DNA of 64,000 bases from a virus: the IMG/VR virus record IMGVR_UViG_3300025840_000011. One strand, written 5' to 3'. The translations under genes were made by a program, and so were the position numbers. Below, in pieces: positions 708 through 63,703 of this stretch (its first letter is position 1; each line of letters opens with the position of its first letter). Below the pieces are notes generated by a model. The model was not told the DNA's origin. It saw only the letters and a program-made list of their open reading frames with translations, and did no database searches.

Positions 708-772
708 AAAGTGTTGAATAGACCCGTATCATGTTAAACTCATAATTTGTAAACGAAAAAAGGAAAACAGTC

Positions 773-2611: not shown

Positions 2612-2630
2612 GATAACAGGAGCTTAAGAA

Positions 2631-3158
2631 ATGGCAATTTTAGGAGTAGATGACTTCAAGTCGAAGTTAAGAGGTGGTGGCGCTCGCGCCAACATGTTCA
2701 AGGCGACTGTTAACTTCCCCGCATATGCAGGGGGAGATGTGGAACTCACATCTTTCCTATGTAAGGCGGCACAGTTGCCCGCATCCGAAATGGGGGTTGT
2801 TACAATCCCGTTTCGTGGTAGACAGTTGAAGATCGCCGGTGACCGTACCTTCGGTACGTGGACCGTGACTATCATCAACGATACGGACTTCTTGGTACGT
2901 AACTCACTCGAACAGTGGATGAATGGTATTAATTCTCACCAAGCAAACACTGGTCTTACCAACCCCGTTGACTATCAGGCTGACCTGATCGTTGAACAGT
3001 TGGACAAGGATGGGTCAACTATCAAGACATATAATTTCCGTGGGTGTTTCCCAACTAACGTTGCGGCCATCGACGTGAATTATGAAACAGTAGATGCGAT
3101 TGAGGACTTCACTTGTGAATTCCAAGTCCAGTACTGGGAGTCTAACACTACCAATTAA
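2631..3158 (+). CDS. gp19: Tail tube protein
   Basis: GGARANMF, LCKAAQLP, PFRGRQLKIAGDRTF motifs; synteny. Confidence 0.96.
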   Translation: MAILGVDDFKSKLRGGGARANMFKATVNFPAYAGGDVELTSFLCKAAQLPASEMGVVTIPFRGRQLKIAGDRTFGTWTVTIINDTDFLVRNSLEQWMNGINSHQANTGLTNPVDYQADLIVEQLDKDGSTIKTYNFRGCFPTNVAAIDVNYETVDAIEDFTCEFQVQYWESNTTN

Positions 3159-3164
3159 TGGTGG

Positions 3165-3201
3165 TATAAGTATAGGGTACGGAGGGGTAACTCTCCGTAC
3201 C
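3165..3201 (+). promoter_or_regulatory. Late-promoter variant (TATAAGTA, 3165-3172) followed by a stem-loop (3176-3201)
   Basis: GGTACGGAG...CTCCGTACC inverted repeat between gp19 and gp20. Confidence 0.55.
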
Positions 3202-3228
3202 TTCTTACTATAGTAGAGTTTGGAATAT

Positions 3229-4746
3229 ATGGCAGAGAACAACGGTATCAAACTTTTTGGATTCGAGTTAAAGAGGATCCAGAAGAAAGATAAAGAACAG
3301 GAAAAACTCCCCTCTATTGTCCCAAAACAGGATGATGATGGCGCGGGGTATGTAACTGCCAGTGGAGCCCACTTCGGTCAATATATTGACATGAATGGGA
3401 ACGAAGCGAAAGACAATGCAGAACTCATCAAAAAATATCGTGGTATCGCAGAACATCCTGAAGTAGATGCCGCCATCGAAGATATTGTTAATGAGTCTAT
3501 CAGTGCATCTGATGCAGAGTCATCCGTTGAAATCGTTCTTGATAAGGTAGAGGCACCCGACAGAATTAAGAAACTGATTGTTGAAGAATTTGACAATGTA
3601 TGTTCTATGATGAACTTCAATGATCACGCCCACGATATCTTTAGATCGTGGTACGTTGATGGTCGTATCGTACACCATCTAGTAGTAAACGAATCAAACC
3701 TCAAGGCGGGTATTCAAGAGATCCGGTCAATCGACTCCTCTAAGATCCGCAAAGTAAAAGAGGTCAAATACAAAAAGGATCAAAAGACAGACGCCAAAAT
3801 CGTTGATAGTGTAAATGAGTTTTACATCTATCAAGAGAAGGCGGGTGCGAACCAAGGCATCAAATTGTCTCCGGATTCTGTTTCGTATGTGACTTCGGGT
3901 CTACTTGACCCCTCTCGCAAACGTGTAGTGTCTTATCTACACAAGGCAATTAAACCCGTCAACCAGTTAAGGATGATGGAAGACTCTCTGGTGATCTATC
4001 GTCTCGCACGTGCACCTGAGAGAAGAATTTTCTATATCGACGTTGGTAACCTACCTACGGGTAAGGCAGAACAACACATGAAAGACATCATGTCTCGTTA
4101 TAGAAATAAGTTAGTCTACGATGCAAACACTGGACAGATCAAAGATGATCGTAAACACATGTCCATGTTGGAAGACTTCTGGTTACCTCGTAGAGAGGGT
4201 GGACGTGGTACAGAGATCAGTACCCTGCCTGGCGGGGAGAACCTTGGACAGATAGATGACATCATCTACTTCCAGAAGAAACTGTACCGTTCATTGAATG
4301 TACCTATCAATAGACTGGAACAAGAAGCCCAGTTCTCGTTAGGTCGTTCAACAGAAATCAATAGGGACGAAGTAAAGTTCCAGAAGTTTGTTGATAGACT
4401 TCGCAGACGTTTCTCTATGATGTTCTTGGGCATCATCAAGAAACAACTTGTCCTCAAGGGTATCATCACCGATGAGGATTGGGATGAGTGGAAGAACGAT
4501 ATCGTCATCGACTTTATTCGTGACAACCACTTCACCGAACTTAAGAACGCTGAGTTGTTAAGGGAACGTCTGGATACTATGGACAGAATTACACAGTATG
4601 TTGGTGAATACTTCTCGCGTGAATGGGTAATGAAAAATGTCATGATGATGTCAGATGATGACATCGAACAGATGAAAGATGAGGTCGAATCCGAAAACGA
4701 TAAAGGTGACGGAGGAGAGGCGGACGATGGCGACGAATTCCAGTAA
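3229..4746 (+). CDS. gp20: Portal protein
   Basis: YRLARAPERRIFYIDVGNLP, MLEDFWLPRREGGRGTEISTLPGG; ATG at 3229 preferred over TTG at 3220. Confidence 0.97.
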   Translation: MAENNGIKLFGFELKRIQKKDKEQEKLPSIVPKQDDDGAGYVTASGAHFGQYIDMNGNEAKDNAELIKKYRGIAEHPEVDAAIEDIVNESISASDAESSVEIVLDKVEAPDRIKKLIVEEFDNVCSMMNFNDHAHDIFRSWYVDGRIVHHLVVNESNLKAGIQEIRSIDSSKIRKVKEVKYKKDQKTDAKIVDSVNEFYIYQEKAGANQGIKLSPDSVSYVTSGLLDPSRKRVVSYLHKAIKPVNQLRMMEDSLVIYRLARAPERRIFYIDVGNLPTGKAEQHMKDIMSRYRNKLVYDANTGQIKDDRKHMSMLEDFWLPRREGGRGTEISTLPGGENLGQIDDIIYFQKKLYRSLNVPINRLEQEAQFSLGRSTEINRDEVKFQKFVDRLRRRFSMMFLGIIKKQLVLKGIITDEDWDEWKNDIVIDFIRDNHFTELKNAELLRERLDTMDRITQYVGEYFSREWVMKNVMMMSDDDIEQMKDEVESENDKGDGGEADDGDEFQ

Positions 4747-44732: not shown

Positions 44733-45500
44733 ATGTTACTAGTCAATGGTTGCAGTTTTACATATGGGGATGAGTTGGAGGGTTGTAATGATGACCCCCC
44801 TACTCACTGGCCTAGAAACTGGGCAAGTAAGTTAAGTAATCATCTTGGTTTTGAGGAACCACCAGTAAATCTTGCAACCTGTGGCGGAGGTAACGAAAAG
44901 ATTTTCCGTGATCTCACAGTGTACCTTGCGGATGCACAGGCGGGAAAGAGAACCATGCCCACTCACATTGTGGTTATGTGGTCTGGGTTTACTCGACATG
45001 AGGTCGCTGAGTCCAGAGAGGTTCACAACGAAAAGTGGTTGAACATAAAACGATATGATGACATGACCCAATATTCTCCGGAGAGAATCGATATTCTTGA
45101 CGAGAGTAAGTGGGGTGCGATGTACATGTATATCCATAAGGGTCATGAACCAAGAACCGATATTCTACACACCCTTACTTTCATGTTAAGTCTACAAAAC
45201 ACATGTGATACTCTTGGTATTAAATTGATTCAAGGCGCTTTCCATAAGATGATGTATGATATGATGATCTACATGACTCAGGAAAATGGACGAGATAAAA
45301 TTTTTCGCAATTGGCAGAAACAGTGTAATGAACATCTGGGTAGACTAAAGAAAGAGTCTAGGATTGGAATGGGACATTGGAAAGACCTCTACACTCTCGC
45401 CAAAGAGAACTATACGATCCACGAACACAATCATCCAGACGAAGACGCACATACAGAGTATTCGACTCTTTTATATCACATCTTCGAACAAATGGAATAA
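44733..45500 (+). CDS. SGNH/GDSL hydrolase-like protein
   Basis: NGCSFTYG (block I), NLA..G.GN, VMWS...R, HP...AH. Confidence 0.7.
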   Translation: MLLVNGCSFTYGDELEGCNDDPPTHWPRNWASKLSNHLGFEEPPVNLATCGGGNEKIFRDLTVYLADAQAGKRTMPTHIVVMWSGFTRHEVAESREVHNEKWLNIKRYDDMTQYSPERIDILDESKWGAMYMYIHKGHEPRTDILHTLTFMLSLQNTCDTLGIKLIQGAFHKMMYDMMIYMTQENGRDKIFRNWQKQCNEHLGRLKKESRIGMGHWKDLYTLAKENYTIHEHNHPDEDAHTEYSTLLYHIFEQME

Positions 45501-45526: not shown

Positions 45527-45571
45527 ACTAAATACAGGCATACTATGGGGGTGTCAATTAAATGACACCCC
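45527..45571 (+). promoter_or_regulatory. Late-like promoter ACTAAATA plus 5' hairpin heading cassette copy 1
   Basis: ACTAAATA at 45527-45534; GGGGTGTCA/TGACACCCC stem at 45548-45571. Confidence 0.55.
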
Positions 45572-45595: not shown

Positions 45596-46171
45596 ATGCG
45601 CTTAGTAATTAGCAGCGTGGTGTTACTTACATCATTAATTTTTGGAGTCGCAGTCAATGCACAGGACGCTGACGAAACTCCGACTCAAACAGTTGAACCT
45701 ATCATAACTGAGAGTACCGTTACTACCAACGGTAAAACGACTACTATTCTCAGATCACCCCCTGCCTCTGCGATCACCCCGACAATCAACACGTCGAACT
45801 CAGACTTGTGTACCTTTGGAGTTGCGGGTGCAATTCAAACTCAGATTCTTGGTGTCTCTACAGGTACTCAGGTAACGGATGAAAATTGTGAGAGGTTAAA
45901 GAATGCAAAGACGCTCTATGATATGGGAATGAAAGTGGCCGCCGTGTCGGTTATGTGCCAAGACGAAAGAGTCTTTGATGCAATGATGCACGCCGGAACA
46001 CCGTGTCCATATGATGGTCTAATAGGTCCAGCGGCAAAGGCGGCGTGGGAAATCAACGAAGAGGAACAACCCAATGCAGAAGACTACGACAAAGGGTTTA
46101 CAAATGACAAGAAAACCTTACTGGGCGCTGGTGGTGTCCTTAGTATTCTTCTCATGCTTCTGGTCATCTAA
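45596..46171 (+). CDS. Cassette 1 gene A: exported Cys-containing protein with C-terminal hydrophobic anchor
   Basis: Signal peptide ending AVNA; PPASAI.P...DLC...NCERLK...MCQD...GTPCP; ends GAGGVLSILLMLLVI. Confidence 0.8.
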   Translation: MRLVISSVVLLTSLIFGVAVNAQDADETPTQTVEPIITESTVTTNGKTTTILRSPPASAITPTINTSNSDLCTFGVAGAIQTQILGVSTGTQVTDENCERLKNAKTLYDMGMKVAAVSVMCQDERVFDAMMHAGTPCPYDGLIGPAAKAAWEINEEEQPNAEDYDKGFTNDKKTLLGAGGVLSILLMLLVI

Positions 46172-47000
46172 CGTACATGCACAAACCGTTTTCGGGACAA
46201 CCGGAAATGCGGCGCAAGATGGTCTTACATGGGTAATGACCAACGTCCTGCCTCAACAGACAGGACTTACAGTTAATGGTGTTGTGTACAGATACACAAC
46301 CATAAAGAACCCCGAAGACGATATGATCGTCTACGTGCAGAACGAGGATGCGGAGAACGAAGGTCAATACATTTTTCGATCCGCAGACGATTGGTCTGGA
46401 TTGCCAGGCAGTTCGATAAGGAGATTGGTTCCTGTCTCTAACATACCTCGAAGTAGGTGGGGAGACGGATCTATTGTTGTGGAAGGTGAAGGTAAAGTAA
46501 CGGATCCTACTGTCCTCTACAACTATCAGTACGATCCTTGTTTTGGTGTAACTGATAGACCGGAGTGCCCGAATTATATTCCGTCCACTCCAACCGTACC
46601 GGAAATTGTAGCGTATGATCCAATGGACGATCAGTTCGTACAAGAAGAACTGGAAAAAGAAACTGAAACTAAAGATGAGGAGGAAGAAGAGAGAGATAGA
46701 GAACAGATTGAGGAGGGTGGTGAATCAAAACCAAACCTGAGAAGGAAATCCCTCGAAGAGATGTTAGGTATTGTTGAGAGGTCACTTATCGCGTCCGCTG
46801 ACCAACAGATACACAACCAACTACTCTTACTAAACTTCGTACCAACTTTTTATTATGATACACTCCCCGACACTAAATACGAGGAGACCATAACTCTACA
46901 GGATGCGAATTTACCTGACAATACTAACGGGTATCGTGTAAACTTTGCCCAAGACCAACTACATCAAGAGATGGTCAATCTACAGTATGAACAACCATAA
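46104..47000 (+). CDS. Cassette 1 gene B: exported protein (beta-rich N-domain, acidic linker)
   Basis: Signal ending VHA; Y.YD.C....P.CP; paralogue at 60230. Confidence 0.8.
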   Translation: MTRKPYWALVVSLVFFSCFWSSNVHAQTVFGTTGNAAQDGLTWVMTNVLPQQTGLTVNGVVYRYTTIKNPEDDMIVYVQNEDAENEGQYIFRSADDWSGLPGSSIRRLVPVSNIPRSRWGDGSIVVEGEGKVTDPTVLYNYQYDPCFGVTDRPECPNYIPSTPTVPEIVAYDPMDDQFVQEELEKETETKDEEEEERDREQIEEGGESKPNLRRKSLEEMLGIVERSLIASADQQIHNQLLLLNFVPTFYYDTLPDTKYEETITLQDANLPDNTNGYRVNFAQDQLHQEMVNLQYEQP

Positions 47001-47013
47001 AAAGGAACATTAA

Positions 47014-47517
47014 ATGTTAAAGAAAGTACTACCATTAACGGCGTTGTCTCTTGTTCTCGCAACAAGTGCGAATGCAACTAATGTCGATATCACGGGTACT
47101 GTAGATTCTAAGTGTGTGGTGACAACAGACACTCTAGGTGTCTTTGGAAACCCGACACCAAGTACACTCAGTACTGACGCAGTTGACGGGGGTGTTGAAC
47201 CCATCGTTCGCTACGATGTTATTCAGGCTGATTATTACAAGGCGACAATAACAACTCCAGACCAATTCGTTGAGAGTCCTGCTTTGGACGATGTTGTGAC
47301 TTGGAGTGGAACAGTTTCGGTCAGTGAAGTTTCGGATCCCGCGATGGCGGCATACGACACTGAGAAGAGACTCTACAACAACGTAACAGAAATCGATCTA
47401 ACGGTTGCAGGAAGTACTTGGTTCAAAGTATCTTCAGAAGCCGACTATGGATTTGACAAGGCATTACCCGCTGGTATCTATCGTGCGACAGTACAGGCGG
47501 AGTGTATCGCAATCTAA
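47014..47517 (+). CDS. Cassette 1 gene C: pilin/fimbrial-subunit-like exported protein
   Basis: Signal ending ANA; I.G.V.SKC N-terminal strand; C-terminal P.G.Y.A.V.A.C strand; about 145-aa mature beta protein. Confidence 0.6.
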   Translation: MLKKVLPLTALSLVLATSANATNVDITGTVDSKCVVTTDTLGVFGNPTPSTLSTDAVDGGVEPIVRYDVIQADYYKATITTPDQFVESPALDDVVTWSGTVSVSEVSDPAMAAYDTEKRLYNNVTEIDLTVAGSTWFKVSSEADYGFDKALPAGIYRATVQAECIAI

Positions 47518-47895
47518 ATGATACGTTTTATTATGTTATTGACAGGATTGTTCTTGAGTGGGTCAGCGATGGCCCACTCTTGGACACCAACATATCCAAA
47601 ACTCGAAAGAAGTTTTGTTGAGAATGTGATGCAGACTGAGATGTTACTGATCAATCGAAGAAGTGATGTTGAGTTCTTCGAGATTAGTGTTTACGACTCT
47701 GAGTGGAACCCCGTGAAATTCGCCACGAGCGAAAAGATAATTAGGGTTCCTTACTTAGAGAGAAGAGAAGTAATGGTGTATATCCGACAACAAGATGTTG
47801 GTATTGCAGATTACATATGTACAAAAACTAAAATTGTCAGACAAAGGACTACCGGAACGTCCGTGTCTTCTAGGATATGTTCGAGATTGAAATGA
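47518..47895 (+). CDS. Cassette 1 gene D: periplasmic chaperone-like (single PapD-N-like Ig domain)
   Basis: Signal ending AMA; H.WTPTYPK, L.N.R.DV.FFEI.VYD, ICT/ICS Cys pair. Confidence 0.55.
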   Translation: MIRFIMLLTGLFLSGSAMAHSWTPTYPKLERSFVENVMQTEMLLINRRSDVEFFEISVYDSEWNPVKFATSEKIIRVPYLERREVMVYIRQQDVGIADYICTKTKIVRQRTTGTSVSSRICSRLK

Positions 47896-48389
47896 AAAAA
47901 TTACTCGTTATTGTAGCGTTATTGTTTTCTGCTGAGACCGCAGCGCAGGATTCTATACCCGCAACAACCACTACAACAATAATTGAGAGAGCGCCCACTA
48001 GTAACAGCGCGAGTTCTCTCAATCTTAATATGCCCAACTCTCCCCAAAGTTTTCAACAGGACCGTGTACGTGCAGGAGACTTCGAGTGTTCTGCCGCGAT
48101 TGGTTCTGCAACAAATCTAGAGTTTGGTGTGGTGGGTATCCTCAATCAGGATGACCCTTACTACGGAACTTACTATGGTACGGACATAGGTCCACCCACG
48201 AGATTTGGAAATCAAGCGTTCACACGAGACGTGGGTGTTTACGCACGGATCAATATTCCTATCGGTGCACCAAAAGAGAGACCCAACTGTAACTTGTTAT
48301 ACAAACTAGAGTTGGAGAAGAAACGACTAGAGGTCTTAAGACTACAACAGGAACTACAAAACTTACGCAACTTGCAATTCGAAGAATAA
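47892..48389 (+). CDS. Cassette 1 gene E: exported protein with amphipathic beta-hairpin and C-terminal coiled coil
   Basis: ECSAAIGS..N.EFGVVGI...D.GVY.RI.IPIG...NC..LY.LELEKKRLE. Confidence 0.75.
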   Translation: MKKLLVIVALLFSAETAAQDSIPATTTTTIIERAPTSNSASSLNLNMPNSPQSFQQDRVRAGDFECSAAIGSATNLEFGVVGILNQDDPYYGTYYGTDIGPPTRFGNQAFTRDVGVYARINIPIGAPKERPNCNLLYKLELEKKRLEVLRLQQELQNLRNLQFEE

Positions 48390-48429
48390 TAAATACAGTT
48401 AAACTAACTACCAAAAAGAGAATAATAAT

Positions 48430-48897
48430 ATGGTAGAACTAGCTGTCGCGGTGCAAGTCGCTGGTGCCGCATATAATGCAATTAAGGGAGCAGTGGAAAA
48501 GGGTAGGGAAGCCCAAGATATGATTGGCGCGTTCGGAAAGTTTTTCGATTCTATGGACGCAGTGAGTGAAGCAAACATCAAGAACCAATCTACCGCAGGA
48601 GTTCAGAAACTTTTTAGTGGTAACAGTGTAGAGGCGCAGGCGTTGGAGATCACCGCCGCGAAACACAAGATTGCATGGATGGAAAAAGAACTCAGAGAGT
48701 ACCTGATCTATTCCGGACAAGGCGCCTTCTACGAAGACATGATGGAAGAACGCAAAAGGATACGAAGGTATCGTCAGAACGAAATGCGTAGGAAGGCGCA
48801 GGCCAAGGCGTTCTGGATTGATGTTGCGGCGCTTGTTTTTGGTATAGGAATAAGTATATTTGTGATCACAGGACTCATCACAGTAATCGTAAGTTAA
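48430..48897 (+). CDS. Cassette 1 gene F: helical protein with C-terminal TM segment
   Basis: SVEAQAL, E.EL.EYL.Y.GQ..FY.DM..ER; paralogue at 62470. Confidence 0.8.
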   Translation: MVELAVAVQVAGAAYNAIKGAVEKGREAQDMIGAFGKFFDSMDAVSEANIKNQSTAGVQKLFSGNSVEAQALEITAAKHKIAWMEKELREYLIYSGQGAFYEDMMEERKRIRRYRQNEMRRKAQAKAFWIDVAALVFGIGISIFVITGLITVIVS

Positions 48898-48906
48898 GGA
48901 TAACAG

Positions 48907-49386
48907 ATGGCAGAATTTGAATTCGCGGGAATGACCTTCAGAGGTGGTAGGATAATGGTTATCCTCACCGCCCTGTCAACCTTGGGTGGTGCATCTTGGG
49001 GTGCATTTGAGTTCTATAAAGACTACATGGATATGAAAGAGATCATTGCGAACATCGATACCACAGAGATTGAGAACCGCAATAGACTAATCGAGCAGAA
49101 GTTAGACGATGCGTTGATTCAAGTTGACGCCGCAGTAGACTATTCCAGAACTATCAAGAACGACTTACGAGACGATTTCAATCGCATGGAACGCAACGTT
49201 GACCGTGTGGAGGATCAAGGGAGAACTCTAGAAACCGTAGTTGAAGATATGATAGATAGGGCTGACGAACGATTTGATACCAAACGAGATGCACTCGTTG
49301 TGGATACTGATCGTAAACTTCAACAGGTAGAGGAAAGACTCGACGCAAAAATACAGGCGTTTTTAGATAATCCTTTATCAAATTAG
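48907..49386 (+). CDS. Cassette 1 gene G: N-terminal TM plus coiled-coil protein
   Basis: MAEFEFAGMTFRGG..LSTLGG..WGAFEFY...LDNPL; paralogue at 63224. Confidence 0.8.
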   Translation: MAEFEFAGMTFRGGRIMVILTALSTLGGASWGAFEFYKDYMDMKEIIANIDTTEIENRNRLIEQKLDDALIQVDAAVDYSRTIKNDLRDDFNRMERNVDRVEDQGRTLETVVEDMIDRADERFDTKRDALVVDTDRKLQQVEERLDAKIQAFLDNPLSN

Positions 49387-49389
49387 GTC

Positions 49390-49418
49390 TTGACAAAAAT
49401 GAAAAATCGTGTTATAAT
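49390..49418 (+). promoter_or_regulatory. Perfect sigma70 promoter TTGACA-17-TATAAT
   Basis: Exact consensus overlapping the start of the lipoprotein gene. Confidence 0.75.
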
Positions 49419-49773
49419 CTTAGCTAGCTTGCTGGGGATGAGTATACTCAGCGGTTGTGCATCACTCTACGACGATAATGAGTCGTATCAAGCGGTAGAA
49501 CTCTACCACAACATCAATAATCTAGAATGTAGTGACGAAGGTCTCGCAATAGAACAAGCGGCGATTATCGATGATAACGTTGACTGGTTGATTGCGTACT
49601 CCGAACTCAAAGGATCCCGTGATGTTAATAACCTTTTACTACTTATGAAAACCACAACGGAACCCCTCGCGGCGCGAGAATCGATGTCACCTACATATTG
49701 TGGACTGAAGAAAACTTTATTGCAGGAACAGAGTCGTGACGTTGGAACGGCGATCCTACGGAGAAACAAATGA
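49399..49773 (+). CDS. Putative lipoprotein
   Basis: MKNRVIILASLLGMSILSG-C lipobox. Confidence 0.65.
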   Translation: MKNRVIILASLLGMSILSGCASLYDDNESYQAVELYHNINNLECSDEGLAIEQAAIIDDNVDWLIAYSELKGSRDVNNLLLLMKTTTEPLAARESMSPTYCGLKKTLLQEQSRDVGTAILRRNK

Positions 49774-50037: not shown

Positions 50038-50066
50038 TTGACAATCTCTGCCTAGTGTAGTATTAT
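50038..50066 (+). promoter_or_regulatory. Early promoter TTGACA-17-TATTAT with AT-rich UP element
   Basis: Near consensus; upstream A/T tracts. Confidence 0.8.
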
Positions 50067-55780: not shown

Positions 55781-56629
55781 ATGGCACAATACTCAGTAAA
55801 CAGAAACACACATCACAACACATCAAACAGTGACTTACATGAAATCATGTTGTTGGCTGATCAGGACGGCAACATTATCAATACGTTTGGTGTTGCATCG
55901 AATATTCCTATTGCAGGTGGACTCGTTGATGGGTATAGTGCAATACATAAGTTTGGTAGAAATCCAAATGTAGGAAACATACCAGAAACTATTTGGATGC
56001 ACGGAGGACTTTATAGTTATCTTGATGTTGGTTCTGATAGTACAATTTATGCATATAGCGCAAGCTCTGACGATGGTCCTGGCAATCCTGGTGCTCACAC
56101 GATTACTGTTCAAGGTTTAGATAATGATTTCAATCTAATTGAAGAAACGATTACTGTAAATGGTGCAGCTTCTACTGCTTCATTCCTAAGAGTTTATAGA
56201 GCATTTGTTGCGACTGCTGGGGCGTTAAGGGCAAATGATGGTAATGTTCTTATATCCACCGCCGCGGCTGGAGGTGGTACAGTTCTTGCTGATATTGGCG
56301 TTATTGGTACAGGAACAACTACTGGTTTGGGTCAAACTCAACTTGCACTTTATACAATACCAGCTGGAAAAACTGGTTATCTCACTACTTGGAACATCGG
56401 TGTAGCACCAATGAATAATGCTGTCACAGTGACTTTAAAAGCAAGAGAACTAGATGGTGATGCACCATTTAGATCAAAGGATATTGTTGATATCGTAGGT
56501 GGATATACTACTCAGAATTATTCAATTCCCTTGCGTTTTCCAGAAAAAACTGATATTGAAGTGAGAGGAACTGGTGACACTGGTTCAGTTATTTCATCTT
56601 CTTTTGATGTTATACTAGTAGATAACTAA
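55781..56629 (+). CDS. Putative virion structural protein (beta-rich, Gly/Thr/Ala-rich)
   Basis: HKFG.N, GA.TITVQGLD, F.RV.RA.V, YT.PAGKT.Y, EKTDIEVR. Confidence 0.6.
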   Translation: MAQYSVNRNTHHNTSNSDLHEIMLLADQDGNIINTFGVASNIPIAGGLVDGYSAIHKFGRNPNVGNIPETIWMHGGLYSYLDVGSDSTIYAYSASSDDGPGNPGAHTITVQGLDNDFNLIEETITVNGAASTASFLRVYRAFVATAGALRANDGNVLISTAAAGGGTVLADIGVIGTGTTTGLGQTQLALYTIPAGKTGYLTTWNIGVAPMNNAVTVTLKARELDGDAPFRSKDIVDIVGGYTTQNYSIPLRFPEKTDIEVRGTGDTGSVISSSFDVILVDN

Positions 56630-56692: not shown

Positions 56693-57928
56693 ATGAAATC
56701 GTTTATGACACATCAAATGCTCTCTGAGGCGAAGAACACTCACATGACTCACATCGAGGATAAAGTCCTCTATGGGGGAGTTGAGGGAACTCGTCAGGCG
56801 ATCAACGCACTTCGTTCCCTGCGCGATATGCTTGCTGGCAAACATAAGGGCGATATCTCCGTCAAGTGGGACGGTGCTCCTGCTATCTTCGCAGGCATTG
56901 ATCCTCGGGACGGTAAGTTCTTCGTGGCGAAGAAGGGTATCTTCAACAAAAACCCCAAAGTATACAAGACGAAAGCAGATGTAGACGCTGACACTTCCGG
57001 TGACTTGAATGTAAAACTCAACGCTGCACTTGAGGAACTCCCTGCTCTTGGCATCAAGGGTGTCATACAGGGCGACTTCTTGTTTGGTCCTGGAGATGTA
57101 GCGACCAAGAATATTGGTGGCGATGCTTATGTTACGTTCCACCCCAACACGATCGTGTATGCCTTGCCTACTGGTAGTGCTGCGGCGAAAGAAGTGAAGA
57201 CTGCTCGTATCGGTATTGTATGGCATACAACATACACTGGTGATACGTTTGAAAGTATGCGAGCATCATTCGGCGTCAACGTTGGTGCTCTGAAGAACAG
57301 TCGTAAGGTTTGGAGTCAAGATGCTATGCTTCGTGACGTGACGACTGCTACTTTGACTGCTGCCAAAACTAAAGAAGTGACCGAATACCTTTCAACTGCT
57401 GGTAAAATATTCCAGAAGATTGCTGGCAGCACCCTTCGGCAACTTGAGGCGAACCAAGAACTCGCTCAGTTGATTGAACAGTTTAACAACACGTTCGTCC
57501 GTAAGGGTATGGTGATACAAGACTCGCGGCGACACGTGATTGCACTACAACGTTGGTTGCGCACGAAGTACAAAGCAGAGATGGATAAGCGATCCACGGA
57601 GCGTGGTAAGAAGGCACAAAAAGAAAAACTCAACAAAATTATGGCGTTCTTCTCGAAGCAAAACACCGCATCATTAATCGCTATGTTCGAATTGCAAAAG
57701 AATATTGTATTGGCGAAACTGATCCTTATAAATAAACTCAATGCCCTTGCGAATATAAGCACTTTTGTTAAAACGCGGAAGGGTTACAAGGTAACAGGTC
57801 AAGAAGGATTTGTTGCTATCGACAAACTTGGTGGTGATGCGGTGAAGTTAGTTGATCGTATGGAATTTTCATATAACAACTTTTCACCAGATATATTAAA
57901 AGGATGGGATAAACCTAGTAGGAATTAA
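56693..57928 (+). CDS. Conserved T4-like protein (DUF6267-like) with ligase-type nucleotidyltransferase motifs
   Basis: KNTHMTHIED, VKWDGAPA (KxDG), QGD, EGFV, VKLVDR. Confidence 0.65.
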   Translation: MKSFMTHQMLSEAKNTHMTHIEDKVLYGGVEGTRQAINALRSLRDMLAGKHKGDISVKWDGAPAIFAGIDPRDGKFFVAKKGIFNKNPKVYKTKADVDADTSGDLNVKLNAALEELPALGIKGVIQGDFLFGPGDVATKNIGGDAYVTFHPNTIVYALPTGSAAAKEVKTARIGIVWHTTYTGDTFESMRASFGVNVGALKNSRKVWSQDAMLRDVTTATLTAAKTKEVTEYLSTAGKIFQKIAGSTLRQLEANQELAQLIEQFNNTFVRKGMVIQDSRRHVIALQRWLRTKYKAEMDKRSTERGKKAQKEKLNKIMAFFSKQNTASLIAMFELQKNIVLAKLILINKLNALANISTFVKTRKGYKVTGQEGFVAIDKLGGDAVKLVDRMEFSYNNFSPDILKGWDKPSRN

Positions 57929-57930
57929 AC

Positions 57931-58425
57931 GTGCCTAAACCACTTTCATTTAAAGATTTTCTCGTGGTCGACTATGCTCCAGGAATGGGTGAGTATATCA
58001 ACTATCAAGCGGCCAAACGCAAAAAGCAGCAAGGTGCTGGCAGCAATGCCGAGTATGCTTCTTACCAACCTGAAGGTGAGAAGATAGAAGAAGCACTGAC
58101 TCATGCTCAGCGTATTAAGAAACGTCAGATGATGAAGAAGATGAAGGGACGTATTAAAATTGGAAGACTTCGTGCACTAAAAAGAACTCCAACAATGGAC
58201 GTTATCAAGAGACGTGCAAAGAAGAAAGCGAGATTGCTCATGCTCAAGAAATTGACTAGGGGCAAGTCGAAGCAAGATATGAGTTTCGCTATGCGCCAGT
58301 CATACGAAAAGAAACTTGACAAGATGAAACCTCGCTTAGATCGTATTGCCAGAAGGTTAATCCCCGACGTTAGAAAAGCAGATCGTGAGAGAAAGAAGGC
58401 AGCATCTGCTGCTAAAAATAAATAA
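57931..58425 (+). CDS. Highly basic hypothetical protein
   Basis: K/R-rich after IEEAL; probably nucleic-acid binding. Confidence 0.7.
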   Translation: MPKPLSFKDFLVVDYAPGMGEYINYQAAKRKKQQGAGSNAEYASYQPEGEKIEEALTHAQRIKKRQMMKKMKGRIKIGRLRALKRTPTMDVIKRRAKKKARLLMLKKLTRGKSKQDMSFAMRQSYEKKLDKMKPRLDRIARRLIPDVRKADRERKKAASAAKNK

Positions 58426-58445
58426 TGTAGTCGTAGGGAGACGAC

Positions 58446-59573
58446 ATGATTAAGTCGTTTAATGACTATCTGGTAGAAGAAGCAAAGGTCGCTTATTTTA
58501 CCTTCGGTCGTATGAATCCTCCAACCTCTGGTCATCAGAAGTTGTTAGACATGCTCGCAAAAAATGCGGGCAAAAATCCTTATTTCGTTTTCCTATCTCA
58601 GTCACAAGACGCCAAGAAAAATCCACTCGACTACAGCGCGAAGGTAAAGCATGTTCGTAAGATGTTTCCTCGTCACGCTCGTCGAGTTTTGATCAACAAG
58701 AAAGTCCGCACTGCCTTTGATGCAGCATCATACCTGTATGAGCAAGGTTTTAAAAACTTGGTCATGGTTGTTGGTTCTGACCGTGTTCGAGAGTTTACGA
58801 CATTGCTAGAAAAGTATAATGGTGTGAAGGGTAAGCATGGATTTTACAACTTCAAAAACATCCAAGTAGTTTCTGCTGGAGCACGCGATCCTGACGCCGA
58901 AGGTGTAGAGGGTATGTCTGCTTCTAAACTCCGTGCGTTCGCAGCGGATAATGACTTCGCAGGTTTCTCTCAGGGTCTAGGATCTATGAGTAACAAAGAC
59001 GCGAAGAAGTTGTTTGTTGATGTACGCAACGGTATGGGCATCAAAGAAGAAACTGTGTTCAAACGCCACGTAGAACTTGACCCTGTGTCGGAGACTCGTG
59101 AGAAGTTTGTAAAGGGTGAGTTGTTTGAAGTTGGTGATCAGGTTGTAGTAAAAGAATCTGAAGAAGTTGGCACCATCACTCATCTAGGCAGCAACTATGT
59201 TATCGTCCAACTGGGCGAGGATAAAGTTGTGCGCAAATGGTTAGACGCCATTGAAAAGTTAGATGAATATGTGTCCAGCGCAGAGTTTGTTCCGTCACCC
59301 ACTGGTGGCAAGAAATATGCGACACTCAACATGCGCGAAGAACCTAAAACTCCTCAAGACCCTGACATTAAAGATCGCAAGGGTTCCCAACCAAAAGCAT
59401 ACCATAAAGGTTTAAGCAAGTCGATGAAACGTCGTCGTGATGCTCAATTTAAGAAGCAGACTAAAATGTCAGACTCAGATCCAAAGGCATACAAACCTGC
59501 TCCTGGCGACAAAACAACTAAAACTAAACCGTCAAAATACACGAAAGCGTTTTCTAAGATGTACGGCGACTAA
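58446..59573 (+). CDS. Cytidylyltransferase/NMNAT-PPAT-like nucleotidyltransferase
   Basis: FGRMNPPTSGH, VGSDR, SAG.RDPD...GMSAS. Confidence 0.85.
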   Translation: MIKSFNDYLVEEAKVAYFTFGRMNPPTSGHQKLLDMLAKNAGKNPYFVFLSQSQDAKKNPLDYSAKVKHVRKMFPRHARRVLINKKVRTAFDAASYLYEQGFKNLVMVVGSDRVREFTTLLEKYNGVKGKHGFYNFKNIQVVSAGARDPDAEGVEGMSASKLRAFAADNDFAGFSQGLGSMSNKDAKKLFVDVRNGMGIKEETVFKRHVELDPVSETREKFVKGELFEVGDQVVVKESEEVGTITHLGSNYVIVQLGEDKVVRKWLDAIEKLDEYVSSAEFVPSPTGGKKYATLNMREEPKTPQDPDIKDRKGSQPKAYHKGLSKSMKRRRDAQFKKQTKMSDSDPKAYKPAPGDKTTKTKPSKYTKAFSKMYGD

Positions 59574-59576
59574 ATA
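59569..59576 (+). promoter_or_regulatory. Late-like promoter ACTAAATA upstream of cassette copy 2
   Basis: Same octamer as upstream of copy 1. Confidence 0.45.
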
Positions 59577-59697
59577 TTCGTGGTCTCCGTTATGTGCTTG
59601 ACCTGACGTTCCTGTTTTATTTCCTTTTGTAATTACGAATAATACTATGCAAATCTGATTTGATTTGTTGGACAAAACTACATTAGGAAATGGTAAA

Positions 59698-60303
59698 ATG
59701 GATAAACTGGACGCAAGTCTATGGCGCATTATCTGTGCCGCCATATTAGTAGTAACATTAGCAGTTGTTGCATCAGAGGCGATATCGCAAGATGAAAACC
59801 AACCGCTTGATGATGTTATTAGAACCGAGTCGGTCACTAACAGTACAGTGACTACGAACGGCAACACAACCACAACACTGAAGTCTCCACCTGCTTCAGC
59901 AATCACTCCTACTATAAACACTTCCAACTCCGACCTCTGTACGTTCGGAGTTGCTGGTGCAGTACAAACGCAGATTCTTGGTATCTCTACTGGTACACAG
60001 TTTACTGATGAAAACTGTGAACGTCTCAAGAACGCAAAGACCTTGTACGATATGGGTATGAAAGTTGCAGCAGTATCAATGATGTGTCAGGATGAAAGAG
60101 TGTTTAAGGCAATGATGAATGCTGGAACACCTTGTCCTTATGACGGACTTATTGGTGATCAGGCAAGAGCAGCGTGGTTAGCAGAAGGTAACACAGTAGA
60201 AGAAAACGTAAAACCAGAGGAAGGATTGGATGAAACGGATAAGACTGTCGCAGCTGCTAGTGGCGGCATTGCTAGTTTGCTTGCCCTCTTACTCTTACTC
60301 TGA
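59698..60303 (+). CDS. Cassette 2 gene A (paralogue of 45596)
   Basis: Near-identical core SPPASAITPTINTSNSDLC...GTPCPYDGLIG; ends SGGIASLLALLLLL. Confidence 0.85.
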   Translation: MDKLDASLWRIICAAILVVTLAVVASEAISQDENQPLDDVIRTESVTNSTVTTNGNTTTTLKSPPASAITPTINTSNSDLCTFGVAGAVQTQILGISTGTQFTDENCERLKNAKTLYDMGMKVAAVSMMCQDERVFKAMMNAGTPCPYDGLIGDQARAAWLAEGNTVEENVKPEEGLDETDKTVAAASGGIASLLALLLLL

Positions 60304-61114
60304 GCAAGTATTCGGCACCACAACCAATGCGGCGAGTTCTGGATATAACTGGGTTATGTCCAATGTCTTGCCTCAGGCGACAGGGTTGACTGTCAGTAAT
60401 GTGATATACAGATACACTACAGTGAAAGATCCTGATGATCCTATGTTGGTGCACGTTTCTAACGAAAATCCTATAGACGGTGGATATACATTTAGAAGTA
60501 CTGATGACTGGACTGGAATACCAGGAAATACAATAAACAGAGTTATACCGATATCGCAAATACCTATCGAGTATTGGGGGGATGGAAGTATTGAGTGGGA
60601 AGGCAAAGGGAGAGTTGATGACCCTTTTGTGGTATACACTTATCAATATGACACCTGCTATGATCCACAAGCAGATCCGGATTGCCCAGGATACAAACCC
60701 GAGATACCTGATATACCACCCGTCCCAGATGTTGCTGATCCTCTTAATGACCAGTTTGTACAAGATGAGTTAGATCGCGAAATGATGCTTCGCGATGAAG
60801 ACGAAGAAGAAAAACAAAGAGCAAAACTTGCAGATGCTGAAGAGGAAGAAGAAGACGTAGACCTAGAAACTGTGCTGGGTATAGTTGGGCGTTCGCTACA
60901 AGGCGCAGAGGATACTGCTAAGCACAATCAGGTCATGGCGTTAAGTCAGTTTTCTCAACAATATTTCCAACAGTTGCCTGATGGTGTTATAGAGGACACT
61001 GTTGTGTTAAAAGATTCTAGACTCCCGAGGAATAATCGGGGTCGTAGACTACAGTTTGCGCAAGACTTACTTCATGATAAATTAGTAAAATCTCAATATA
61101 GAGGAGAACAGTAA
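60230..61114 (+). CDS. Cassette 2 gene B (paralogue of 46104)
   Basis: VFGTT.NAA, WVM.NVLPQ.TGLTV, FRS.DDW.G.PG, FAQD.LH. Confidence 0.85.
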   Translation: MKRIRLSQLLVAALLVCLPSYSYSEQVFGTTTNAASSGYNWVMSNVLPQATGLTVSNVIYRYTTVKDPDDPMLVHVSNENPIDGGYTFRSTDDWTGIPGNTINRVIPISQIPIEYWGDGSIEWEGKGRVDDPFVVYTYQYDTCYDPQADPDCPGYKPEIPDIPPVPDVADPLNDQFVQDELDREMMLRDEDEEEKQRAKLADAEEEEEDVDLETVLGIVGRSLQGAEDTAKHNQVMALSQFSQQYFQQLPDGVIEDTVVLKDSRLPRNNRGRRLQFAQDLLHDKLVKSQYRGEQ

Positions 61115-61611
61115 TGTTCAAAAAGACGTTGGCATTGTGTGTATCGCTCGCAGCGATGAATGCATATGCTGTAGACACACCGATCATTGGGCAGGTAGAG
61201 TCTAAGTGTGTGGTGACAACTGATAAGCAGGGTGTTTATGGAAACCCGAGTGCTAGCATTCTCAGTACTGATGCAGCAGACGGTGGAGTAGAACCTGTTG
61301 TGCGATTCGATGTTGTCCTCGCTGAAGCATACAAGGCAGTGATTGCTCATCCGATTTCATTCTCACAAAGTCCACAGTTGAACGACGTTGTCAACTGGAC
61401 TGGATCAACTTCTGTAGAAGCAGTCTCTGACGCTGGTATGTCAGCATACGACACTTCTAAAGTTGAATACGATAATGTGACAGAAGTCGATCTTGATATC
61501 GCTGGCAGCACTTGGTTCAAGGTAAGTTCTGAAGCAGATTACGGTTTTAATAAGGCACTCCCAGGAGGCACTTATACTGCAATCGTAGAAGCGAACTGCA
61601 TAGCACTATAA
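61114..61611 (+). CDS. Cassette 2 gene C, pilin-like (paralogue of 47014)
   Basis: SKCVVTTD..GV.GNP, GGVEP.VR.DV, AGSTWFKVSSEADYG..KALP.G.Y.A.V.A.CIA. Confidence 0.65.
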   Translation: MFKKTLALCVSLAAMNAYAVDTPIIGQVESKCVVTTDKQGVYGNPSASILSTDAADGGVEPVVRFDVVLAEAYKAVIAHPISFSQSPQLNDVVNWTGSTSVEAVSDAGMSAYDTSKVEYDNVTEVDLDIAGSTWFKVSSEADYGFNKALPGGTYTAIVEANCIAL

Positions 61612-61614
61612 ACT

Positions 61615-61989
61615 ATGCGCTTCGTTATGGCGGTAATCGGGTGTCTGCTGTGTGCGCAAGTTTATGCTCACCAGTGGACGCCCACATATCCCAAGGTAAC
61701 TGGTTCATTTGTTCCTGGGATCTATCAAGCAAAGATGTACTTGTGGAATAGTCGAAAGGATGTTTCATATTATACATTTGAAGTGTTTGATGAAGATTTT
61801 CTACCTGTACCATTCGCAACAGCAGATAGGACGGTACAGTTAGATTATTTGAAAAAGAAAGAAGTGGTAATTTATTTTAGAGAGGCAGACTACCTTCGTT
61901 CAGTTTATATTTGTAGTCGGTCTATGATTTTACAGGGGGACGTAAGTAGAACGGTTGTGTCCTCGAGGATATGTTCGAAAATACGATGA
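61615..61989 (+). CDS. Cassette 2 gene D, chaperone-like (paralogue of 47518)
   Basis: HQWTPTYPK, N.R.DV, FAT, VSSRICSK. Confidence 0.6.
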   Translation: MRFVMAVIGCLLCAQVYAHQWTPTYPKVTGSFVPGIYQAKMYLWNSRKDVSYYTFEVFDEDFLPVPFATADRTVQLDYLKKKEVVIYFREADYLRSVYICSRSMILQGDVSRTVVSSRICSKIR

Positions 61990-62468
61990 AAAGATTATTG
62001 TTGTTTTTATTTTTAGTTTCTGGTTCGGCATATGGACAGAGCAACGGGATAAACCTTGCGATACCGCAAAGTCCCCAGTCCTTCCAATCAGATAGAGTTA
62101 GAGCAGGTGACGTCGAATGCTCAGCGGCGATCGGGTCATCTACAAACGTAGAGTTTGGGGTTGTTGGTATATTAAACCAAGAAGATCCAATTTACAACCT
62201 TGCTTCGCAAGATCCATATATGATGAACCGATATAATACAGGTGAGTTCTTGCGAGACATTGGTGTGTATGGGAAGATTACTATCCCTATCGGCGCACCT
62301 AAGCAAAGGTTGAATTGTAATGCGTTATATCAGTTAGAGTTAGAAAAGAAGCGATTGGAAGTTATGAAACTACAGCAGGAAATAGTAAACCTGCGTCAGT
62401 TAAAGTTTGAAGGGTCTGGAATACCGACAGCACCGAACTTGATGGCAGGACCACCAAGAGAGGAATAA
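61986..62468 (+). CDS. Cassette 2 gene E (paralogue of 47892)
   Basis: SPQSFQ.DRVRAGD.ECSAAIGS, EFGVVGILNQ, IPIGAPK. Confidence 0.8.
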   Translation: MKRLLLFLFLVSGSAYGQSNGINLAIPQSPQSFQSDRVRAGDVECSAAIGSSTNVEFGVVGILNQEDPIYNLASQDPYMMNRYNTGEFLRDIGVYGKITIPIGAPKQRLNCNALYQLELEKKRLEVMKLQQEIVNLRQLKFEGSGIPTAPNLMAGPPREE

Positions 62469-62469
62469 A

Positions 62470-62931
62470 ATGATAGAAGTAGCAGCAGCGTTGTCAATGG
62501 CAGGCTCTGCTTTTAAAATGCTAAAAGGGGCAATTGAACAGGGACGTGAAGTACAAGATATGTACGCGCAGTTTGCTCAGTTTTTTGACGCGAAGGAATC
62601 GCTCGCAGAGGCAGATCAACATGCAAAGAATCCATCGATGGTGGGTTCACTTTTTGGTGGCAGCAGTGTTGAAGCGCAGGCACTACAGGTTACTGCTGCT
62701 CGTCATAAAATTAAACAACTAGAAAAAGAGTTGTACGAATATTTGTTGTACACTGGTCAACAACAATTCTACGATGATATGATGAAAGAAAGGCGAGTTA
62801 TTCGTCAGCGTAGAATAGAGGCAGCACAAGCAGCTGCTCGGAAAAAAGCAAACATAATAGACGGCATCGCAATAGTTTTGTTTTTATGTTTTTCTGGTGC
62901 TATGATTGCCGGATTCGTGAGTGTCTTATGA
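62470..62931 (+). CDS. Cassette 2 gene F (paralogue of 48430)
   Basis: SVEAQAL..TAA.HKI; C-terminal TM. Confidence 0.8.
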   Translation: MIEVAAALSMAGSAFKMLKGAIEQGREVQDMYAQFAQFFDAKESLAEADQHAKNPSMVGSLFGGSSVEAQALQVTAARHKIKQLEKELYEYLLYTGQQQFYDDMMKERRVIRQRRIEAAQAAARKKANIIDGIAIVLFLCFSGAMIAGFVSVL

Positions 62932-63062
62932 TAAAGACTGAGATCACACAGAATGGCATCAGATATATTGTATATGATAATAATGATCGTATCGTCGTTA
63001 TTACGTCTGATAGAAAACTCGCTCAAAAATTATGGGAGAAGAAAAGGGATGCGCAGAGGTAA
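62928..63062 (+). CDS. Small hypothetical protein (44 aa) inserted in copy 2
   Basis: ATGA overlap with gene F; YIVYD.N.RIV.IT. Confidence 0.5.
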   Translation: MIKTEITQNGIRYIVYDNNDRIVVITSDRKLAQKLWEKKRDAQR

Positions 63063-63237
63063 GAAAACTGATATAATTGATTATATCGACATTCGTATTT
63101 CACAACTCGCTTCTGATATGCACAAAGCGAAAGACGAATACGACAAGCAATGGTATAATCGTATCATTCAAGAACTCAGTTGGGCAAGGTCGCAAGATCA
63201 CAACTGTTACATGGGAGAAAACAATGGCGGAGTTTGA
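63049..63237 (+). CDS. Small hypothetical protein (62 aa) inserted in copy 2
   Basis: MRRGK...D..WYNRIIQEL.W. Confidence 0.55.
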   Translation: MRRGKKTDIIDYIDIRISQLASDMHKAKDEYDKQWYNRIIQELSWARSQDHNCYMGENNGGV

Positions 63238-63703
63238 ATTCGCTGGCATGACGTTCCGTGGTGGTAAGATAGTGGTGCTGATCACTGCTCTATCTACACT
63301 CGGCGGTGGCGCATGGGGTGCGTTTGAATTTTATAACGACTACCGTAACATGAAAGCACAGATAACAAGTTACGTTGCTCCTGATCTTTCTCATATTGAT
63401 CAAGAGTTGGCAGTACAGAAAGAAACTATGGCATCTGTAGAGGCGAGTTTATCTGCCCTCGCTCTAAAGATTGATGCCTTGAAATCAGATTTGAGTAATG
63501 ACATGGATAAGGTTGAAGCACTTGCTCGTCGCGTAGACGATTCAACTGCAACTACCCAACGCGAATTACGAGATGACGTTTATGAGATTGAGATTCGAGT
63601 AAACGAAAGGATGAGGACTTTGGATAAAGACCTGCGAGATGCGCGCAAAGATCTCGAAGAGAAGATTCAGATTATCCTCGACAATCCACTCAATAATCCG
63701 TAG
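63224..63703 (+). CDS. Cassette 2 gene G (paralogue of 48907)
   Basis: MAEFEFAGMTFRGG...LDNPL; SD ggag. Confidence 0.8.
   Translation: MAEFEFAGMTFRGGKIVVLITALSTLGGGAWGAFEFYNDYRNMKAQITSYVAPDLSHIDQELAVQKETMASVEASLSALALKIDALKSDLSNDMDKVEALARRVDDSTATTQRELRDDVYEIEIRVNERMRTLDKDLRDARKDLEEKIQIILDNPLNNP

Follow-up and report, generated by a model that had tools for sequence, protein, structure and literature searches.

Why would a T4-like phage carry a tightly packed block of genes for exported proteins, two of which recall the subunit and the chaperone of a bacterial pilus, when no usher is encoded with them? The question is raised by positions 45,596 to 49,386 of a viral DNA stretch of 64,000 nucleotides from IMG/VR record IMGVR_UViG_3300025840_000011, which was analysed as a whole and is referred to below as the window. 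A preliminary description of this locus had listed seven genes, A to G, and had proposed that they specify a minimal pilus or envelope-spanning assembly system. The reading best supported by our structural modelling is that the centre of the block would be an usher-less chaperone–subunit pair, formed by the products of genes D and C and working by donor-strand complementation. No published description of this module was found in the literature.

The products of genes C and D

The mature product of gene D has 106 residues, of which the first is an invariant histidine, and is modelled as a small beta-sandwich of one domain with a predicted local distance difference test score (pLDDT) of 83.5. 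When this model was searched with Foldseek, PapD-like chaperones filled nearly all of the first 25 places (FaeE, PapD, DraB, FimC, Caf1M, SafB and SfaE), with expectation (E) values from 5e-4 and template modelling (TM) scores, taken over the query, of 0.5-0.65; after the chaperones came major sperm protein domains, which belong to the same superfamily. A search of 48,161 chains with VIA-align gave FimC a Z score of 9.6, with a root-mean-square deviation (rmsd) of 2.6 over 95 residues, and the part of the chain that was matched (residues 4-114) is domain 1. SafB (9.3) and PapD, FaeE and YadV (8.9) were found as well, with one unrelated glycosidase domain among them (9.5), and the structure searches also matched domain 1 of CupB2, CfaA and CsuC. 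Two independent structure searches therefore lead to domain 1 of PapD-type chaperones, and the suggestion that D is a single immunoglobulin (Ig)-like periplasmic chaperone domain holds at the level of the fold. The invariant N-terminal histidine had also brought up the idea of a copper protein, which is not the leading reading of D: copper-protein domains reached Z scores of 6.4-7.1 in VIA-align against 8.9-9.6 for the chaperones, and residues 1-7 lie in the predicted interface with C described below. When genomes were scanned for D, only three short contigs binned into metagenome-assembled genomes were found, and these are most likely phage DNA.

For the mature product of gene C, a model made from a 49-sequence alignment is an all-beta domain (pLDDT 92) in which residues 1-12 are unstructured. 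Its top matches in Foldseek are chaperone–usher pilins, namely CfaB, the pilin domain of PapG, FimF/G, CsuA/B, CS17, Caf1 and AggA, all of them weak (E 2e-3 to 3e-2, TM 0.4-0.46). The nearest named cluster in the ESM Atlas is DUF4402 (PF14352; TM 0.65 by query, 137 residues, rmsd 3.8), an uncharacterised family of bacterial exported proteins to which C has no sequence match. This family, which has a putative link to pili, turned up neither in the control genomes nor in the literature. At the mature N-terminus of C, positions 3 and 5 are always hydrophobic and Gly7 and Val9 are invariant, followed by S-K-C, and this pattern holds in the most distant members of the family. Both cysteines of C are invariant as well, one lying where the first strand begins and the other within the last strand. 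The terminal motifs from which C had originally been likened to a fimbrial subunit are indeed present, and the Ig fold with pilins at the head of the (weak) Foldseek matches, together with the free and conserved N-terminal extension, agrees with that likeness.

Complex modelling, which had been proposed as a check for donor-strand complementation between C and D, predicted docking in that geometry. The interface score ipSAE of the C–D model was 0.74, whereas none of three controls exceeded 0.02, with a partner pLDDT of 88, and at least 94% of the contacts were common to three runs. As a benchmark, the mark used for ipSAE is reached by 58 of 80 solved complexes and by 2 of 110 mismatched pairs, figures that are a rough guide here because our own alignments were used. 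Residues 138-145 of C pair with residues 96-103 of D with both indices rising, so that the last strand of D is laid parallel on the last strand of C. In chaperone–usher systems, donor-strand complementation is defined by just this non-canonical, parallel pairing. In addition, the first strand of C (residues 10-17) contacts residue 101 and the N-terminal residues 1-7 of D, and the invariant Arg29 and Tyr80 of D sit in the interface. Residues 1-9 of C are outside the interface despite their conservation. The donor segment of D follows the pattern hydrophobic-x-Ser-x-Ile and the free extension of C the pattern hydrophobic-x-Gly-x-Val, and the two segments could fill the same groove.

Several results weigh against grouping C and D with the chaperone–usher proteins. 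The second chaperone domain is absent from D, no longer relatives of D being present among 7,372 candidates. The PapD_N model (PF00345) gave no match at E <=10 on 54 members of the D family, and none on five related contigs, the E. coli control being positive; hhalign of D versus FimC returned a probability of 0.3%. Similarly for C, the fimbrial families (Fimbrial, SCPU, DUF4402 and others) had no match in a Pfam search of 49 members at E <=10, hhalign versus FimA, FimI, FimF and FimG returned a probability of 2.4%, and a profile search of the PDB found nothing. An exhaustive profile search with C recovered a compact family of 108 representatives, with no named or cellular relatives. Furthermore, two VIA-align runs placed generic Ig adhesins first for C, for example SdrD with a Z score of 7.6, which is within the range that the tool calls a common arrangement, and all scores were below 8. 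The likeness of C to pilins is therefore owed to the weak Foldseek matches. As to the complex, its score is the model's own confidence and may reflect a memory of solved chaperone–subunit complexes. In accordance with the earlier remark that no usher gene is visible, the window has no usher-sized unassigned ORF, the Usher model (PF00577; E <=1) had no match on the five related contigs of up to 147 kb, the E. coli control again being positive, and no other known pore was found. What the C–D model shows is a likeness of mechanism, and not a demonstration of binding.

A comparison with the pairs FimC-FimA, PapD-PapK, FaeE-FaeG, Caf1M-Caf1, CfaA-CfaB and CsuC-CsuA/B is instructive on both counts. 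As in those systems, both partners carry Sec export signals, C combines an Ig fold with a free N-terminal extension, D has the fold of PapD domain 1 and the last strands of the two are predicted to run in parallel. The phage module differs from them in having no usher, no second chaperone domain and no detectable sequence similarity, in the location of its genes in lytic phages, behind a late-promoter motif and among the unrelated exported or anchored proteins A, B, E and G, and in the disulfide of C, which joins the first and last strands of the domain. Since usher, second domain and sequence membership are all lacking, the module resembles the first step of the chaperone–usher pathway but is not a member of that pathway. 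To our knowledge, donor-strand complementation has hitherto been known only from bacterial chaperone–usher pili and a few archaeal fibres. If the models hold, it would also occur in very abundant ocean phages, in a stripped-down form with half a chaperone, no usher and new partners, and the chaperone–subunit step could then operate apart from the usher.

A conserved block of exported proteins

All seven ORFs lie on the plus strand as first described (Table 1). A and B overlap by 68 nt, B and C are separated by 13 nt, C and D by 0 nt, and D and E overlap by 4 nt with a shared ATGA, followed by gaps of 40 nt between E and F and of 9 nt between F and G. While tight spacing of the seven ORFs is thus evident, the unit that is conserved consists of six genes, A-B-C-D-E-G; F is accessory, with homologues in the window and a few other loci only. 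Relatives of C were found in 38 viral contigs, and A-B-C-D-E-G synteny is seen in all 38. In a divergent contig (L121, positions 737-4154) the order is A-B-small ORF-G-C-D-E, followed by a staphylococcal-nuclease-like gene. The locus is rearranged yet complete, which argues that the six genes travel together, and its order shows C-D-E as a block that has apparently moved relative to G. The family of D occupies at least 537 viral loci and that of C more than 1,694 metagenomic proteins, none of which is named. A tblastn search of 50,697 phage records with C and E gave no match, searches of Pfam, NCBIfam and PHROGs with the products of genes A to I returned only unnamed PHROGs (for A, E and F), and PDB profile searches with A, B, D and E, like that with C, gave nothing significant.

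Table 1. Positions and properties of the cassette genes, the associated expression signals, the neighbouring gene H and the second cassette copy in the window
Feature	Position	Strand	Description
Late-promoter-like motif ACTAAATA	45527..45534	+	6/8 match to the T4 late box TATAAATA
5' leader stem-loop	45538..45599	+	Outer stem pairs with the start codon of A
Gene A	45596..46171	+	Signal peptide, highly conserved four-Cys domain, C-terminal membrane anchor (172-191); phrog_20531, E 3e-16
Gene B	46104..47000	+	Signal peptide, beta-rich N-terminal domain with two Cys, acidic linker, conserved C-terminal part
Gene C	47014..47517	+	Exported pilin-like Ig-fold subunit; two invariant Cys; conserved unstructured N-terminal extension
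Gene D	47518..47895	+	Exported single PapD-like (chaperone domain 1) protein; invariant mature N-terminus H-x-[WF]-x-P-T-Y-P
Gene E	47892..48389	+	Signal peptide, Cys-flanked hairpin-like segment, variable loop, C-terminal amphipathic helix; phrog_37374, E 1e-5
Gene F	48430..48897	+	Accessory helical protein, C-terminal membrane segment (residues 125-155); AATAAATA at 48389-48396 ahead
Gene G	48907..49386	+	Weakly hydrophobic N-terminal anchor, long coiled coil, conserved DNPL motif at the end
Gene H	49390..49773	+	Neighbouring lipoprotein, lipobox LSGC
Second cassette copy (A2-B2-C2-D2-E2-F2, two small ORFs, G2)	59698..63703	+	38-65% amino-acid identity to copy 1

The Sec-type signal peptides that had been noted on A to E were present in every homologue examined. 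A crude test of the von Heijne type was used, asking for a positive n-region, a 10-residue core with a Kyte-Doolittle value >=1.8 and small residues at positions -3 and -1, and it was passed by all of the 20-24 distinct N-termini available for each of the five genes. The membrane anchors reported for F and G were likewise recovered, in F as a C-terminal segment and in G as a weakly hydrophobic N-terminal segment (residues 17-35, mean hydrophobicity score about 1.56) that precedes the coiled coil.

Overlap of A and B out of frame, over 62-68 nt, is common to all related loci (46104-46171 in the window), and the shared DNA specifies two segments at once, the C-terminal anchor of A and, in a different frame, the signal peptide of B; for B, an alternative upstream ATG at 46074 is possible. 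The Gly-Gly hydrophobic tail of A was considered as a GlyGly-CTERM sorting signal and rejected, as it has no NCBIfam match and is missing from the pelagiphage homologues. Both A and E had been credited with Cys-flanked amphipathic beta-hairpins that might oligomerise into a barrel in place of an usher. The segments exist and the flanking cysteines are invariant, but clean alternation of hydrophobic and polar residues is confined to the second strand of E. In E, the two invariant cysteines flank two strand-like segments, the second of which alternates perfectly over 11 positions and the first only partially; in A, the segment between the cysteines is nearly invariant and alternation is unclear. 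The loop of E (48090-48170) is the only part of that protein free to vary in length and sequence, its flanks, including both cysteines, being invariant. Among the cassette products E would be the sole candidate for an outer-membrane component, and that it forms a barrel is a guess. When the Atlas was searched with E and A, the clusters that came up, if any, were viral and unnamed.

The A-B-G core in cultured phages and its possible link to lysis

Part of the module is present in phages that have been cultured. Homologues of A were found in the Pelagibacter podophages HTVC115P and HTVC023P, the pelagimyophage Mosig and the Roseobacter phages CRP-207 and CRP-810, and more distant ones in Ralstonia phage RSP15 and in Achromobacter phages JWAlpha and JWDelta. 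The A-like gene of HTVC115P, Mosig, CRP-207 and CRP-810 comes before an overlapping or adjacent gene in the position of B and a clear homologue of G (gp49 in HTVC115P, gp73 in CRP-207 and gp51 in CRP-810), without C-D-E. The G homologues of cultured phages share with G the N-terminal motif, the anchor, the coiled coil and the NPL ending. Since A-B-G is found without C-D-E, it is an older and widespread trio, to which a C-D-E sub-module was added in the T4-like lineage. The proposal of one minimal pilus-like system is accordingly upheld in part: the C-D pair is pilus-like by fold, but the block is composite, A-B-G existing elsewhere without C-D-E, and no sequence match to a pilus family was found in it.

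The surroundings of the trio raise another possibility, namely that the module is lysis machinery, a spanin-like or outer-membrane-disrupting complex in which G would be the coiled-coil arm in the inner membrane, E, A, B or H would form the outer end and C-D would be an add-on. In Mosig, A-B-G directly follows a gene for a GTA_holin_3TM protein (E 1.6e-5), a position that points toward a lysis-related role and thereby counts against a surface function of the module, and in the podophages HTVC115P, CRP-207 and CRP-810 the trio comes after tail-fibre genes, which is a frequent site of lysis genes. G has the topology of an i-spanin, with an N-terminal anchor and a coiled coil, although this topology is not specific when taken by itself, and in the window it is followed by the gene for lipoprotein H, whose lipobox is retained in 15 of 16 homologues. 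The apparently late expression of the cassette would also fit. However, H follows G in the window and in a first group of loci, whereas no lipoprotein is encoded after G in a second group, so that H is not an obligatory partner; the idea of G and H as a phage spanin is weakened by this loss, and H probably lies outside the core of the cassette. G matches no PHROG spanin family, no endolysin domain is encoded near the cassette in the window, and the 'lysozyme' annotation of G-like proteins in CRP-207 and CRP-810 has no Pfam support. A pilin–chaperone pair, moreover, has no known place in spanin function. Set beside the two-component spanins (lambda Rz/Rz1, T4 PseT.3/PseT.2), the module is similar in the topology of G and in the lipoprotein gene that comes next in the window, and differs in that H is not conserved with G, that no family match was found and that five further exported proteins are co-conserved with G. 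On balance we consider a lysis machine unlikely.

Putative signals for late expression

The window encodes the T4-type portal, Gp23 major capsid protein, tail sheath, UvsW and UvsX, as well as a gp46-like ATPase, a family B polymerase (gp43) and a gp41-like helicase, at a G+C content of about 44%. In the capsid protein, Phage C48C1 shares 72% identity with the window, and Methylophilales phage Melnitz and the pelagimyophages share about 60-63%, and a megablast search with the cassette region revealed no near-identical phage record. By these sequence criteria the source is an uncultured marine T4-like phage.

A late-like promoter ahead of the cassette had been noted before. In the relatives, the canonical box TATAAATA is present in 17 of 26 distinct upstream regions, in 16 of them at 29-46 nt before the start of A, and ACTAAATA takes its place in the window and in its two nearest relatives. 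The second copy of the cassette is preceded by the same GACTAAATA at 59569-59577. One can presume from these motifs that the cassette is expressed late. A second motif resembling the late box, AATAAATA, occurs at 48389-48396, 41 nt before the accessory gene F.

Between the late-box motif and gene A, and just 3' of the motif, the leader can fold into a hairpin of -26.7 kcal/mol (z = -5.75), and 0 of 200 shuffled sequences folded as well. At the corresponding site before A, relatives also possess hairpins, though these differ in sequence. The combination of leader hairpin and late box is reminiscent of the translational control of gene e in T4. At the other end, an extended sigma-70 promoter (49390-49418; TTGACA, 17 nt, TG, TATAAT; 12/12) comes directly after the stop codon of G and overlaps the start of H, which marks the end of the cassette as a unit. 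A further sigma-70 promoter (11/12) is found at 50038-50066, ahead of a DUF932 gene; both are probably early promoters.

A possible role at the cell envelope

Taken together, the leaders on A to E, the T4-type genes, the late-box motif, the linkage of six genes, the folds of C and D and the C-D model support the reading of the block as a late, Sec-exported envelope module, in which assembly of C would alter the surface of the cell shortly before or at lysis. We regard the chances of this reading as evenly balanced. According to it, A to E would be exported via Sec, A (by its C-terminal anchor) and G (by its N-terminal anchor, with the long coiled coil) would stay in the inner membrane facing the periplasm, and F would be tail-anchored on the cytoplasmic side. 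D, whose single domain would be related to, or a mimic of, that half of the PapD/FimC chaperones which binds the subunit, would clasp C in the periplasm, laying its C-terminal strand parallel on that of C and touching the first strand of C, with the N-terminal motif and Arg29 of D completing the predicted grip. About nine residues at the mature N-terminus of C, with their alternating hydrophobics and invariant Gly, might then displace the strand of D on a neighbouring C and so produce a polymer of C; alternatively, C might be handed to other proteins of the module. More speculatively, E would be the partner in the outer membrane, there being no other candidate; it has a coiled coil as well as an amphipathic hairpin clamped by cysteines. 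The coiled coil of G would be long enough to bridge the periplasm. As to the role, our guess is an envelope-associated structure that changes the cell surface near or at lysis, the masking of receptors on cells and debris being one example.

A more explicit version, which we think improbable, is an usher-independent pathway for a phage fibre: D would prime C, the polymer formed by strand exchange between C subunits would leave through a new, small oligomeric pore of E in the outer membrane, A and G would act as anchors, and infected cells would bear phage-made fibres on their surface shortly before lysis.

The same interface admits a simpler outcome, in which the C–D pair is a soluble heterodimer of the periplasm, or D does no more than stabilise C, and the product binds or blocks a host receptor, porin or pilus machinery and so brings about superinfection exclusion or protection of progeny, with neither polymer nor pore. 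The strong prediction of a C-D heterodimer, the missing usher and the fact that C is as much like Ig-type adhesin domains as like pilins would all be in line with this, as would the receptor-binding fibre genes that adjoin the module in podophages. The conserved free N-terminal extension of C, however, would have no role in a simple heterodimer, and the pair is co-conserved with E and with two membrane-anchored proteins, A and G, which suggests that the assembly is larger, so that we find this explanation doubtful. That the products are ordinary virion or virion-assembly components is very improbable, the late-promoter motif and the tail-fibre neighbours in some podophages notwithstanding, since tailed-phage virions assemble in the cytoplasm, whereas five cleavable export signals and two membrane anchors are kept in all homologues and no structural PHROG or Pfam match was obtained for the cassette proteins.

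Like the envelope module proposed here, the receptor-masking and exclusion proteins Llp of T5 and Imm and Sp of T4 are phage-encoded and destined for the envelope of infected cells; those, however, are single small early proteins, whereas the module is a block of several proteins and looks late. If the models hold, the module would point to an unrecognised event late in infection at the envelope of marine bacteria, be it receptor masking, remodelling of the surface or a novel way of rupturing the outer membrane, and a function would be at hand for a gene block whose carriers among uncultured phages number from hundreds to thousands of genomes. It seems that phages have taken over one part of the mechanism by which bacteria assemble pili and use it at the envelope, and the presence of the A-B-G core in cultured pelagiphages and roseophages makes part of the system open to experiment. 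What the present study adds is the geometry of the C-D interface, the A-B-G core of cultured phages, the promoter comparison and a caveat that concerns the second copy of the cassette.

The second copy and the flanking region

The second cassette copy, complete but diverged, is followed by a gene whose product is a membrane protein with a match to phrog_10198. A simple chimeric duplication of a larger region was rejected as the origin of copy 2, because no gene of the window outside the cassette is present twice. Related contigs, one of 147 kb, carry a single copy of the cassette, and in these the counterparts of the genes at 56693-59573, which stand ahead of copy 2 in the window, lead to other genes. 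In an independent contig (L031), the cassette does come directly after the counterparts of these genes, and thus the insertion site of copy 2 exists in nature. A compositional break is located at about 56.0 kb (55900-56050), with GCT plus AGC strongly depleted upstream (6.9/kb) as against 23.4/kb downstream, and the switch falls inside an intact ORF (55781-56629). Since copy 2 lies beyond the break, its region may be the result of either a recent recombination or a chimeric assembly.

Immediately upstream of the first copy lies a gene (44733-45500) whose product carries the GDSL/SGNH-like motif G-C-S-F-T-Y-G-D-E near its N-terminus and weakly matches DUF6071. It has no signal peptide, and in one of the groups of relatives it is likewise conserved ahead of the cassette.

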